A stretch of 32,000 nt of DNA from Candidatus Saccharimonadota bacterium (GCA_965229705.1 OZ245922.1:300001-332000), one strand, 5' to 3'. Counted from the first letter of the stretch, positions 23,653 to 31,296 are shown. Numbers and translations are program-made. The notes: a model not told the origin generated them from the sequence alone.

Positions 23653-26586
23653 TTAGAGATTTTCAGACAGAGCTTGAATCTGACTAGGTTCCATCTCACC
23701 GAGTAAAAACTGCTTTACGATTTCAGCGTCACCAAACATTGGGAGTAGTTTATCCAAAAATGATTCATCAACCTCTATAGATAAACCACTAGTAAATGAT
23801 TGCATACTTTGAACTTCATCATTTGTGAGCTGTATATGATATTTATCAAAAAACGAGTGTAGTATTTTATTATAATCGAGATTTTGAATCACTGTTGCCT
23901 CTAGGTCAAAGCTGTCTGCCAAGTCGATATCTCTATCATCTGGTATTGGTTCGCCATCGGATCCTACATGTGCACTGCTAAATGGAGAAAATCCGCGTCC
24001 TCCTCCACTCATTACTTTCTTGAGCATAGCCCACTGTTTTTGCCCAACAGATTTGTTACCCGTTAAATACGTTAATAACAGGTATTGATACTGCTCATTT
24101 GTTGTTAATAACTCTACATAGGTCTTTAGCTCTTGAGTGCTTTTCCCACTTGTTTGGATAAAAAGTTTATGAAAATCGACTTCCTCAAAGAACTTTACTA
24201 GTGATACAAACTCACTATTGCTGGTTGTCCATTTTTGAGTTATCACATATCCTGCGAGTGATTTTGTAAAAACTTGCGGGAAAGTTACAGAGTTTACATC
24301 AGTGTTAAAAGAAGAGTTATTATCTAACATGGTCTTCAGGGCAGAAAGCAGCCTGAGATTTCCTTCTATCACATCTTTTTGAGCAGAGACAAACACTAGT
24401 CCCAACTTATATCCCGTTATTTTTAGGCTTTTGATAGTATACATCTCATCTGTCTTCAGTAGATAAGATACTTTCGTCTCTATATCACCATTCACTGCCA
24501 GTTGTCCAATCGCATAACCTGTGAGTTCAAGGTCATCTTTCAGGAACCTCCAAACAGGTTTCTCTGGTTCATTCTCAATCTCACCTGTCTTTAGTAGATA
24601 AGATACTTTCGTCTCTATATCACCAGTCAATGTGAGTTGTCCAATAGAAGAACCTGTGAGTTCAAGGTCATCTTTTAGGAATTTCCAAACAGGTTTCTCT
24701 GGTTCATTCTCAATCTTACCTGTCTTCAGTAGATAAGATACTTTCGTCTCTATATCACCAGTCAATGTGAGTTGCCCAATAGAAGAACCTGTGAGTTCAA
24801 GGTCATCTTTTAGGAATTTCCAAACAGGTTTCTCTGGTTCATTCTCAATCTTACCTGTCTTCAGTAGATAAGATACTTTCGTCTCTATATCACCAGTCAA
24901 TGTGAGTTGCCCAATAGAAGAACCTGTGAGTTCAAGGTCATCTTTTAGGAACCTCCAAACAGGTTTCTCTGGTTCATTCTCAATCTTACCTGTTTTGAGT
25001 AGGTAAGATATTTTGGTCTCTATATCACCACTTACTGCCAGTTGCCCAATAGAAGAACCTGTGAGTTCAAGGTCATCTTTTAGGAATTTCCAAACAGGTT
25101 TCTCTGGTTCATTCTCAATCTTACCTGTTTTGAGTAGGTAAGATATTTTGGTCTCTATATCACCAGTCAATGTGAGTTGTCCAATCGCATAACCTGTGAG
25201 TTCAAGGTCATCTTTTAGGAACCTCCAAACAGGTTTCTCTGGTTCATTCTCAATCTTACCTGTTTTGAGTAGGTAAGATATTTTGGTCTCTATATCACCA
25301 GTCAATGTGAGTTGTCCAATCGCATAACCTGTGAGTTCAAGGTCATCTTTTAGGAACCTCCAAACAGGTTTCTCTGGTTCATTCTCAATCTTACCTGTTT
25401 TGAGTAGGTAAGATATTTTTGTCTCTATATCACCATTCACTGCCAGTTGTCCAATCGCATAACCTGTGAGTTCAAGGTCATCTTTTAGGAACCTCCAAAC
25501 AGGTTTCTCTGGTTCATTCTCAATCTTACCTGTTTTGAGTAGGTAAGATATTTTGGTCTCTATATCACCAGTCAATGTGAGTTGCCCAATAGAAGAACCT
25601 GTGAGTTCAAGGTCATCTTTTAGGAACCTCCAAACAGGTTTCTCTGGTTCATTCTCAATCTTACCTGTTTTGAGTAGGTAAGATATTTTGGTCTCTATAT
25701 CACCACTTACTGCCAGTTGCCCAATAGAAGAACCTGTGAGTTCAAGGTCATCTTTTAGGAATTTCCAAACAGGTTTCTCTGGTTCATTCTCAATATTACC
25801 TGTTTTGAGTAGGTAAGATATTTTGGTCTCTATATCACCAGTCAATGTGAGTTGTCCAATCGCATAACCTGTGAGTTCAAGGTCATCTTTTAGGAATTTC
25901 CAAACAGGCTTTTCAGGGTTATCTTTGATCTCATCTGTCTTTAGGAGGTAAGATACTTTCGTCTCTATATCACCATTCACTGCCAGTTGTCCAATCGCAT
26001 AACCTGTGAGTTCAAGGTCATCTTTTAAGAATGAAGCATAAGATAAAATAATACTTATCCTCTTCTCTCCGTCAGATTTAATAGCAATTTTTAATAGATG
26101 ATGCAATTTAGGAAATAGCTTCTGATATTCTCCTTCCTCATTAGCCCAAGCCAATATATGAAACCAACTTCCATAAAAAACTGCTTTAATAATATTTTTT
26201 TTAATTGTTTGATCTGTGTGTGTTGCAAGAAAGTCTTTCAAACTTGCTACATCAAACGACTCACATTTCTTTCTAATATCATTTATCAAGTCCAAGTTTT
26301 CAAACGCTGTTAATTCCCAAGCTGTTGTTGTGAGATGACCTCAAGATTGCAACACTTGGAGGAGCTCAACTTGCGTAAGTCTTTTAGCTCGCAAACAGCT
26401 CAAAGCTTGAACCAAAATAAGTTGAGGCAACTCTTCTAGGCTAGCTGACCGTACTCGTTTTTTTAGGCAATTTGCCAAATCTTTCCTCTGTCCAAGAATA
26501 ATATGTAATAATTCCTTTACCTTATCTCACTGCTCAAATTTTTCAGTAGCTGAAGGACTTGCTCATTGTTGTGTAAGCTCATTCAT
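23653..26586 (-). CDS. Modular 45-aa tandem-repeat protein, paralog A (977 aa), unknown function
   Basis: Track ORF 23653-26295 extends upstream through TGA (26341-26343, Ser TCA in paralog B) and two further TGAs to ATG 26584-26586. It has a ~190-aa N-terminal domain, 11.8 repeats of FLKDDLELTGxxIGQLxxxGDIETKxSYLLKTxxxxxxPEKPVW[KR], and a ~300-aa C-terminal domain. No signal peptide or TM helix. Confidence 0.85.
24445..26031 (-). repeat. 135-bp in-frame tandem repeat array, 11.8 units (paralog A)
   Basis: The motif CCAAACAGG recurs at 24550, 24685, 24820 and onward with an exact 135-nt period. The array runs from the FLK codons at 26023-26031 to the ...KTDE codons ending at 24445. Confidence 0.95.
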
Positions 26587-26616
26587 TGAAAGAAGTAAAA
26601 TGTAATTGACACAAGT

Positions 26617-31000: not shown

Positions 31001-31296
31001 TCCAAGTTTTCAAACGCTGTTAATTCCCAAGCTGTTGTTGTGAGATGACCTGAAGATTGCAACACTTGGAGGAGCTCAACTTGCGTAAGTCTTTTAGCTC
31101 GCAAACAGCTCAAAGCTTGAACCAAAATAAGTTGAGGCAACTCTTCTAGGCTAGCTGACCGTACTCGTTTTTTTAGGCAATTTGCCAAATCTTTCCTCTG
31201 TCCAAGAATAATATGTAATAATTCCTTTACCTTATCTCACTGCTCAAATTTTTCAGTAGCTGAAGGACTTGCTCATTGTTGTGTAAGCTCATTCAT
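28084..31296 (-). CDS. Modular 45-aa tandem-repeat protein, paralog B (1070 aa), unknown function
   Basis: Track ORF 28084-31188 (TTG call) extends through TGAs 31237-31239 and 31273-31275 to ATG 31294-31296, with an upstream in-frame TAA at 31339-31341. Same N- and C-terminal domains as paralog A, 13.8 repeats, and a C-terminus 3 aa longer (..KNLLMN). Confidence 0.85.
28885..30741 (-). repeat. 135-bp in-frame tandem repeat array, 13.8 units (paralog B)
   Basis: Same unit as 24445-26031, two units longer, with a different order of unit variants. Confidence 0.95.

Follow-up and report, generated by a model that had tools for sequence, protein, structure and literature searches.

Paralogous arrays of 45-residue units in a Candidate Phyla Radiation genome: a rare orphan family of putative modular binders

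Genes A and B lie on the minus strand of a 32,000-nucleotide stretch of DNA from Candidatus Saccharimonadota bacterium (GCA_965229705.1 OZ245922.1:300001-332000). This whole stretch is hereafter called the window, and its numbering is used throughout unless another locus is named. Each gene encodes a protein in which a central array of nearly identical 45-residue units is flanked by an N-terminal and a C-terminal domain. Here, we describe the two proteins and their relatives, and tentatively propose a modular, per-unit binding function for the arrays. The genes and their parts are as follows.

23653-26586, minus strand: gene A, 977 amino acids under genetic code 25, with three in-frame TGA codons (Gly) in the N-terminal domain
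26032-26586, minus strand: N-terminal domain of A, 185 amino acids, isoelectric point (pI) 8.7, ending in a degenerate capping unit (FYGSWFHIL...G...KL)
24445-26031, minus strand: array of A, 12 units of 45 amino acids, the last one partial; net charge -30
23653-24444, minus strand: C-terminal domain of A, 263 amino acids, modelled as all-helical, opening with a degenerate unit (LKITGYKLG)
28084-31296, minus strand: gene B, 1070 amino acids under genetic code 25
30742-31296, minus strand: N-terminal domain of B, 185 amino acids, 99.6% nucleotide identity to A
28885-30741, minus strand: array of B, 14 units of 45 amino acids, the last one partial; net charge -35; unit order unlike that of A
28084-28884, minus strand: C-terminal domain of B, 266 amino acids, 97.2% nucleotide identity to A

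The gene models depend on the genetic code. Under translation table 11, the window is nearly devoid of long open reading frames (ORFs), and nearly every gene is broken up; stop-to-stop ORFs of at least 100 amino acids sum to 61 kb with TGA as a sense codon versus 21 kb under table 11. In the alignment of metK (16504-17673, minus strand) with Escherichia coli MetK, 12 of the 13 in-frame TGA codons are opposite glycine, and the organism of the window is therefore evidently a user of code 25 (TGA = Gly), like Gracilibacteria and Absconditabacteria. A table 11 reading of A and B was rejected; it yields only the cut-down ORFs 23653-26295 and 28084-31188 and fragments the window. Both genes are minus-strand ORFs under code 25 at exactly the coordinates given in the first-pass annotation of this DNA, and a database protein (P0001) is identical to the product of A except that TGA is rendered as Trp. 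Code 25 supports the Candidate Phyla Radiation (CPR) origin suggested earlier, and so does a relative in a chromosome of 'Candidatus Altimarinota' (Patescibacteria group).

Tandem Repeats Finder detected a 135-nucleotide period in both genes, with 11.8 copies in A (24443-26031, 93% matches) and 13.8 copies in B (28883-30742, 88% matches), the same copy numbers as those reported before. Unit starts number 12 in A and 14 in B, and the final unit of each array decays into the C-terminal domain. The unit consensus, FLKDDLELTG-xx-IGQL-xxx-GDIETK-x-SYLLKT-xxxxxx-PEKPVW-[KR], is likewise the one already proposed, and departures from it are rare (D5E in three units; Q15K, D21N, and I22V once each). 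Two numberings are used here: the consensus phase, which starts at F and covers the 45 residues, and the core phase, which starts at L1-T2-G3. In the consensus phase, variation is restricted to five places: 11-12 (YA/SS/HA), 17-19 (AVN/TLT/AVS), 26 (V/I), 33-38, and 45 (K/R). The variants combine freely, and seven of the nine possible pairings of the first two sites are present. Among themselves, the window units have a mean nonsynonymous divergence (dN) of 0.077 and a mean synonymous divergence (dS) of 0.32, and many synonymous differences are linked to the variants. Because these differences travel with the variants, the variable sites form linked haplotype blocks; in the window arrays they are old, shuffled unit haplotypes and not fresh mutational hot spots. 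Certain units have exactly the same DNA sequence (100% identity), both inside one gene and across the two (A3 = A8 = B11; A9 = A10 = B12). Unit 3 of B (YAIGKLALTGNVETK; residues 276-320; about 30337-30471) belongs to the unit type that prevails in P0002, a close relative described below, and is the best match for 7 of 8 P0002 units; the rest of the window arrays appears to have been otherwise overwritten by other unit types.

At the DNA level, 10 of the 135-nucleotide units contain a perfect 12-bp inverted repeat with a 3-nucleotide loop (ATCTTACCTGTTTTGAGTAGGTAAGAT; 24983-25684 and 29288-29854, plus-strand coordinates), built from codons for SYL and GKI. This unit hairpin could favour slippage or recombination. 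The hairpins also inflate the count of terminator-like structures in the window (20 found versus 5 expected).

Relatives were sought in a word index of 5.8 billion clusters, in an exhaustive hidden Markov model (HMM) search over 1.84 billion representative proteins, and in scans of GTDB, metagenome, and viral collections. The HMM search gave 19 matches at E <= 0.001, about a dozen of which are real relatives, and all searches together yielded about twenty relatives and fragments, with none in the viral collections scanned. By our account, those of the HMM search all derive from uncultured bacteria, mostly of the CPR/Patescibacteria group, and their units are 33-35 or 45 residues long; two fragments are labelled by their sources as Candidatus Magasanikbacteria and Nanoarchaeota. 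No annotated domain is fused to the repeats in any of the about 20 relatives and fragments. The full architecture of N-terminal domain, array, and C-terminal domain is present in five loci, the window and the following four.

L002 (protein P0002): 10 units of 45 amino acids, with variable residues that differ from those of the window
L001 (protein P0003): 8-9 units of 33 amino acids
L003, 'Candidatus Altimarinota' chromosome OZ246423.1, 9704-12384: at least 11 units of 33 amino acids; gene split by a frameshift
L006, Global Ocean Sampling scaffold AACY020297248.1: 4 units of 33 amino acids; intact only when two TGA codons are read through

The first-pass annotation had suggested that unit number and order be compared among homologs; the family arrays in independent assemblies hold 4-14 units, and those of L002 differ from the window in both number and variable residues. 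Among the other members, P0007 and P0009 combine the N-terminal domain with diverged 45-residue units, and P0010, P0011, P0015, P0016, and the fragments P0024-P0030 have units of 34-35 residues of the type FNG[SY]H[VY]SQIV..W..KL.W. The unit length is 33 residues in P0003, L003, and P0008, 34 in P0015, and 35 in P0010 and P0011, and the core is common to all. P0011 and P0015 combine this repeat core with another C-terminal domain, an indication that the architecture is modular. In the L003 orthologue, the frameshift lies inside the array (ORFs 9704-11266 and 11188-12384), and an extra N-terminal extension of about 100 residues is present; the split gene may be a pseudogene, a sequencing error, or a case of programmed frameshifting. 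Type IV secretion system (T4SS) genes were observed near two relatives. A weak match to a T4SS coupling protein (T4SS-DNA_transf, E = 8.6e-5; L006 1-1119) is directly upstream of the Global Ocean Sampling homologue, and two T4SS-pilin genes are within 5 kb of P0007 (locus L007, 1-1941). These neighbours could bear on export of the family or be a coincidence.

When phased on L-T-G, the units of the whole family share the core L-[TNSD]-G-x4-x5-[ILVY]-[GS]-Q8-[LIF]-x-x11-x12-[GA]-[DN]-...-K18-L, which in the window reads L1-T2-G3-x4-x5-I-G-Q8-L-x-x11-x12-G13-D14-...-K18. The 45-residue unit corresponds to the 33-residue unit plus a 12-residue insertion behind position 24. In the family alignment, conservation of Q8 and of K18 exceeds 90%. 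By within-array entropy, the three most variable positions include 4 and 12 in each of the nine arrays analysed, distant relatives included. Position 4 is always Ser versus an aromatic residue (Tyr, His, or Phe), and position 12 is Asn, Thr, Ser, Ala, Val, Tyr, Gly, or Trp. The restricted variable sites noted before thus recur throughout the family, whereas in the window arrays they are the linked blocks described above and not pure hypervariable residues.

The rates of change differ between the arrays and their flanks, and along the unit. When best-matching units of the window and P0002 were compared, the dN/dS ratio was 1.75 in codons 8-26 and 0.23-0.69 elsewhere, and the intra-array ratio was about 4 in L003 and >1.7 in P0003. 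It is suggestive, from these sequence comparisons, that the helix and loop of the unit change faster or diversify. L002 is separated from the window by a dS of only about 0.05 in the flanking domains and has 10 units with other variable residues; the arrays therefore change much faster than the flanks. The N-terminal domain is kept in P0002, P0003, and P0006-P0009, and the C-terminal domain has the conserved motifs FPQVF, DFxxLFIQTS, YQYLLLTYLTGNKSVGQKQW, and GEPxPDDR. Compared with P0003 (dS about 1.5), the dN/dS ratios of the N- and C-terminal domains are 0.17 and 0.15, respectively; the terminal domains are thus under purifying selection, and the family is under constraint. As to their sizes, the 185 residues found for the N-terminal domain agree with the earlier estimate of ~190, whereas the ~300 residues given for the C-terminal domain (here 263 and 266) count in the last degenerate unit. 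Neither a signal peptide-like core nor a transmembrane segment was found in A or B, as stated before: the maximal Kyte-Doolittle 19-residue average is 1.03, compared with 2.6 in a neighbouring membrane ORF.

AlphaFold models were obtained for the C-terminal part (mean predicted local distance difference test score, pLDDT, of 64) and for the N-terminal part with seven units (mean pLDDT of 56). They are all-helical, and each 45-residue unit is modelled as three short helices (array pLDDT 60-78). The terminal domains are poorly defined, and the pLDDT of the N-terminal domain of A is <50. The fold is probably an alpha-solenoid of tandem repeats, as judged from these models. In each modelled unit, a short helix (4-10) starts at position 4 and is closed by positions 11-12, which directly precede the invariant Gly; the 12 extra residues of the window unit are predicted to fall in the break between the second and third helices. 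Structure prediction and Foldseek searching, proposed in the first-pass annotation as a route to assignment, thus gave a helical architecture of limited confidence, and no Foldseek match to PDB or BFVD was below E = 0.06.

The statement that A and B belong to no recognised family agrees with all profile searches. No significant stretch was found in A, B, or their relatives with Pfam, NCBIfam, PADLOC, and PHROGs, the scores being repeated sub-threshold matches. Matches to S4, ExbD, BRICHOS, and assorted phrogs were discarded; they contain zero significant stretches and are sums of such sub-threshold repeats. Profiles of the N-terminal domain, the C-terminal domain, and the repeat matched nothing significantly in PDB; a Pumilio-domain protein reached a nonsignificant E = 0.45 with the N-terminal profile. 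The nonsignificant Foldseek list consists of generic solenoids: TPR, PPR, designed armadillo, TALE, and giant-virus ankyrins. The motif strings of the family did not occur in the literature text searched, and the STAR, MOON, and pTERF families in the DNA-binding repeat screen of Hu et al. 2024 (PMC11417379) do not correspond to it. On these searches, A and B are members of a rare, unannotated orphan protein family of Gracilibacteria and other CPR bacteria.

A self-comparison of the window indicates how the pair arose. The block 23657-27045 is a segmental duplicate (~3.4 kb) of 28097-31755, with identities of 98.7% over 454 nucleotides upstream, 99.6% in the N-terminal coding region, and 97.2% in the C-terminal coding region. 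The block carries, in addition to the gene, a promoter-like region and about 365 nucleotides of the 3' end of dus. The features around the two copies are as follows.

31390-31998, minus strand: 3' part of the intact dus gene (tRNA-dihydrouridine synthase; Pfam Dus, E = 8.6e-33), upstream of B and codirectional with it
31327-31354, minus strand: promoter-like TTGAAA-16 nt-TATATT upstream of B, a consensus match only
26617-26644, minus strand: promoter-like TTGAAA-16 nt-TATATT upstream of A, a consensus match only and the duplicate of 31327-31354
26680-27045, minus strand: pseudo-fragment of the dus 3' end brought by the duplication; the upstream region is 98.7% identical to 31297-31750
27040-27325, minus strand: remnant of an IS200/IS605 Y1 transposase gene (tnpA; Pfam Y1_Tnp, E = 3.6e-26, profile positions 3-104 of 121)
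27464-28006, plus strand: orphan multi-pass membrane ORF of about 180 amino acids between the copies (Kyte-Doolittle 19-residue maximum, 2.6)

The breakpoint of tnpA is at about 27040. Because its frame enters the duplicated dus fragment after about 95 codons and the Y1_Tnp match stops at position 104 of 121, tnpA is a truncated remnant. Together with the membrane ORF, for which no family match was found in Pfam and other family libraries, it makes up a roughly 1-kb insert between the copies (27040-28006). The pair is evidently a recent, IS200-associated segmental (tandem) duplication, as read from the sequence. The earlier remark that each gene has its own copy of the same promoter-like region is correct as to the sequence, the motif being present in both upstream regions; its presence in two copies is a by-product, since the whole block was duplicated. 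In L002, the repeat gene is a single copy, and the gene order is the same (dus, repeat gene, holA, mutS, ftsW). The repeat gene sits in a conserved housekeeping neighbourhood, not in an island.

Here, we propose a function of the arrays based on the recurrent variable positions and the models. The array is putatively a soluble, modular binder that acts per unit, a reading that we hold tentatively, at a little short of an even chance. Each unit would display a small recognition patch (positions 4/5, 8, and 11/12) on a continuous surface, and the array would read a linear ligand unit by unit, either a nucleic-acid strand or an extended peptide. In every lineage, variation recurs at only two sites, position 4 and positions 11-12, and these frame the core helix (4-10). 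The N- and C-terminal domains, with their cryptic units, may cap the solenoid and supply a common function. The pair arose by unit shuffling and the IS200-associated tandem duplication, and the 12 versus 14 units in different order may give A and B different specificities. As to the ligand, a nucleic acid is unlikely, with a probability that is still appreciable: the same two variable sites in every lineage and the invariant Gln and Lys of each unit point to it and, to our knowledge, nearly all per-unit codes known so far are for nucleic acids, whereas the Asp after the loop Gly argues against it. A peptide or protein ligand has a rather low probability.

The more specific possibility that the family is a new class of code-based, reprogrammable nucleic-acid-binding repeats native to CPR/Gracilibacteria is distinctly doubtful. 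In such a code, one nucleotide would be read per unit by position 4 (Ser versus a stacking aromatic residue) and position 12, aided by Q8 and K18; the family would then either have converged on TALE and PUF modules or share an ancient origin with them, and A and B would be differently programmed. The idea that the proteins are programmable binders or host-interaction factors was raised in the first-pass annotation and is kept here as a hypothesis; membership among the TALE-like proteins fails the sequence tests given below.

Several observations weigh against a per-unit binder. The arrays have a pI of 4.7 and net charges of -30 (A) and -35 (B), and such strong acidity is atypical for nucleic-acid binders; by residue count, the 12-residue insertion and the first helix hold most of it, and the core from L1 to K24 has no net charge. 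Within the window arrays, the dN/dS ratio of the core region is 0.58, below 1, and the dN/dS estimates in general come from a small number of unit pairs that are not independent. The variable sites of the window could be the outcome of neutral shuffling among a few ancestral unit types. Because the codons for Ser, Tyr, His, and Phe are one nucleotide apart (TCT/TAT/CAT/TTT), the recurrence at position 4 may be partly mutational. The helix assignment and the surface arguments are tentative owing to the low confidence of the models (mean pLDDT of 56 and 64).

If the two-site pattern is a recognition code, the unit would be a new compact scaffold for programmable DNA, RNA, or peptide binding, and the first such system from the CPR, whose biology is almost entirely inferred from sequence. 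Even without a code, the family is conserved, chromosomal, and soluble, with a fast-evolving array, in genomes of roughly 1 Mb that keep few non-essential genes, which makes it a promising candidate for a factor in host or prey interaction or for a lineage-specific regulator. The A/B pair and the single-copy L002 also provide a natural example of array rebuilding by unit shuffling over a very short evolutionary distance.

The closest analogy is with the TALE-like proteins (TALE, RipTAL, Bat/BurrH, MOrTL1/2, and STAR), which also form long arrays of near-identical helical units, 33-35 residues long in the relatives of A and B. The family units open with L-T and vary at position 4 and at loop position 12 before a conserved Gly, the flanking domains contain cryptic units, and the number and order of units differ between paralogues and orthologues. 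One Lys and one Gln are invariant in each family unit, and their counterparts in TALEs are K16 and Q17. Position 12 lies in the loop after helix 4-10 (AlphaFold pLDDT 60-78), a likeness to the TALE layout that is an analogy and not proof of the same fold. However, the window unit has 45 residues and is modelled as three helices, an Asp follows the loop Gly, and the arrays are acidic. The family occurs in CPR bacteria rather than in plant or fungal symbionts, and its terminal domains bear no relation to TALE ones. Polymorphism in TALEs is limited to positions 4, 12, 13, 32, and 35 (PMC4787788), and the TALE-like consensus motif is Val7/Gly14/Leu29 (de Lange et al. 2015). Phased on L-T, the family has Gly7, Asp14, and Ile/Val29 at these places. 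A shift by one residue gives Ile/Leu7, Gly14, and Val/Leu29 in the 33-residue relatives, the 34-35-residue relatives have Ala in place of Gly14, and the 45-residue units cannot be aligned at position 29.

Similarity searches gave the same picture. At E up to 1, none of the 15 family proteins or domains scored gave a match to the Pfam models of TALE, Ank, Arm, HEAT, mTERF, PUF, and PPR, in agreement with the earlier note that the repeat is not LRR, TPR, ankyrin, TALE, PPR, or HEAT as far as ankyrin, TALE, PPR, and HEAT are concerned, and the family profile retrieved no TALE, BurrH, ankyrin, DARPin, or mTERF chain from PDB. An hhalign comparison with approximate TALE and Bat units gave a probability of 0.2%, the same as the TALE-versus-ankyrin control, and that with ankyrin gave 0.16%. 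With Foldseek against PDB, dHax3 was at E = 3-6, and the best TALE match had E = 3.2 and a TM-score of 0.19 with low-confidence models; no TALE was among the 50 best matches listed for the array model. Membership among the TALE-like proteins, to whose architecture the first-pass annotation had pointed, therefore fails these sequence tests, namely the motif, the profile searches, and the control-level hhalign score. P0003 alone matched designed ankyrins (E = 2e-8) and BurrH (E = 5e-5) in PDB. Against period-preserving shuffles, its similarity to ankyrin had p of about 0.013-0.02, and that of P0015 to the TALE unit had p = 0.015. The two P0003 matches were set aside as mostly due to the 33-residue periodicity, because the family profile loses both, hhalign is at background, and the shuffle p values are weak.

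Ankyrins and designed ankyrin repeat proteins (DARPins) share the 33-residue period of the relatives, and the P0003 pattern 'xLxxNxEVIKxL...G' resembles 'AAxxGHxEVVKLLxxxG'. In that register, family positions 11, 12, and 14 map to the variable tip of the beta-turn, whose positions are those randomised in DARPins. However, the similarity is confined to this one member, no family unit has a TPLH or GH motif, and the segment of the ankyrin beta-hairpin is modelled here as a helix. In PUF and PPR proteins, as proposed for the family, each helical unit contacts one ligand element, and 2-3 residues of a single helix set the specificity; PUF units, too, have three helices. The PUF pattern consists of an edge-contacting Ser, Asn, or Cys, a stacking Tyr, His, or Arg, and a Gln or Glu, and position 4 with Q8 (i, i+4) in the family recalls it. 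The likeness is one of resemblance only: unit lengths differ, PUF arrays are fixed at 8 diverged repeats, and designer PPR proteins appeared in Foldseek only at E = 2.6-5.5. The mTERF-type pTERF proteins (PMC11417379) are ~35-residue, three-helix tandem units from uncultured bacteria, and pTERF1 and pTERF2 bind different DNA motifs according to repeat arrangement (Hu et al. 2024, PMC11417379). The 'GF-x-x-x-H-V-S-Q-I-V' of the distant family relatives is loosely similar to the mTERF 'GFs..qi..iv'. In contrast to the family units, the pTERF repeats are found by the mTERF Pfam model, and pTERFs come from Bacillota; the two were compared by description only. Of the mTERF signature (Pro8 and hydrophobic residues at 11, 18, and 25), no conserved Pro was found at the equivalent place in the family units.

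These comparisons bear on two other explanations of the repeat, whose probabilities, like those of the two discussed thereafter, are not mutually exclusive. A conventional protein-binding solenoid of the ankyrin, armadillo, or HEAT kind would have no per-unit code; its units would be alike through recent expansion and recombinational homogenisation, and the variable sites would either form a binding surface or be places where change is tolerated. The majority of helical repeat proteins in bacteria are protein binders, the three helices per 45-residue unit are armadillo-like, and an acidic surface would suit basic peptides or proteins. The P0003 match to designed ankyrins, with its shuffle p value, the coincidence of positions 11, 12, and 14 with the DARPin beta-turn, and the recurrence of giant-virus ankyrins among the nonsignificant Foldseek matches point the same way. 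We nevertheless consider such a solenoid somewhat unlikely, as Ank, Arm, and HEAT models, PDB chains of ankyrins and DARPins, and hhalign (0.16%) gave no match, TPLH and GH are absent, and solenoids of this kind usually have diverged units and do not as a rule show variation recurring at two shared sites across at least six lineages. A very divergent but true TALE-like DNA-binding repeat, in which position 12 is the base-specifying loop residue and each unit reads one base, merits little credence. It would account for the 33-35-residue units with an L-T start and a Gly end, the variable positions 4 and 12 with the hypervariable residue before a conserved Gly, the invariant Lys and Gln, the cryptic units in both flanks, and the P0003-BurrH and P0015-TALE similarities. 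However, the Val7/Gly14/Leu29 motif is approached only loosely, with the one-residue shift and in the 33-residue relatives only; Pfam, PDB profiles, hhalign (0.2%), and Foldseek (dHax3) are negative; the BurrH match is largely periodicity; and the arrays are acidic, with an acidic residue after the loop Gly, at a place where the G-K-Q of TALEs faces the phosphates.

The remaining two explanations concern the biological setting and the assembly. The proteins might be exported effectors or surface antigens of an epibiotic or predatory CPR cell, with units shuffled in an arms race with the host and export free of a signal peptide. The turnover of arrays, far faster than that of flanks between near-identical genomes, the identical units common to A and B in shuffled positions, and the duplication beside an IS remnant are consistent with this; the perfect hairpin in 10 units might favour slippage, and T4SS genes are near two relatives (the L006 coupling-protein match and the P0007 pilins). 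It is quite improbable, however, in view of the housekeeping neighbourhood, the lack of a signal peptide or transmembrane segment and of relatives in the viral collections scanned, and T4SS links that are weak and limited to two loci. It is very improbable that the tandem pair, or the number and order of its units, is an assembly artefact of a single repeat-rich gene. Arrays of 1.6-1.9 kb with 88-93% identical 135-nucleotide units are beyond short-read resolution, L002 has one copy, and the flanks of A and B are 97-99.6% identical. However, the C-terminal domains differ at 22 positions, the 3' ends differ, and the junctions are unique, with holA on one side, the IS200 remnant and the membrane ORF on the other, and the partial dus as a clean breakpoint. 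The contig of the window is reported as 1.0 Mb, and independent assemblies hold the family with 4-14 units.

Several other features of the window were observed. The MutS homologue at 21355-22593 (plus strand) is about 410 residues long and has domains I-III only, without the ATPase domain V; holA follows with a short overlap. The same short form, 400 residues long, is present in L002 (13721-14923). A SAM riboswitch (Rfam RF00162, 47.6 bits, above the gathering threshold) is at 17730-17838 (minus strand), directly 5' of metK. At 3910-5925 (plus strand), a radical-SAM enzyme of 485 residues is directly followed by a 165-residue Gly/Ser/His-rich protein, which has an N-terminal hydrophobic segment, a 24-nucleotide tandem repeat (5842-5903; NGNPVKDS), and a C-terminal GGGGW. 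A lipoprotein, an HlyD-type adaptor, and a large RND-like transporter are encoded at 5960-11845, and the region 3910-11845 could be a peptide-maturation and export cluster.

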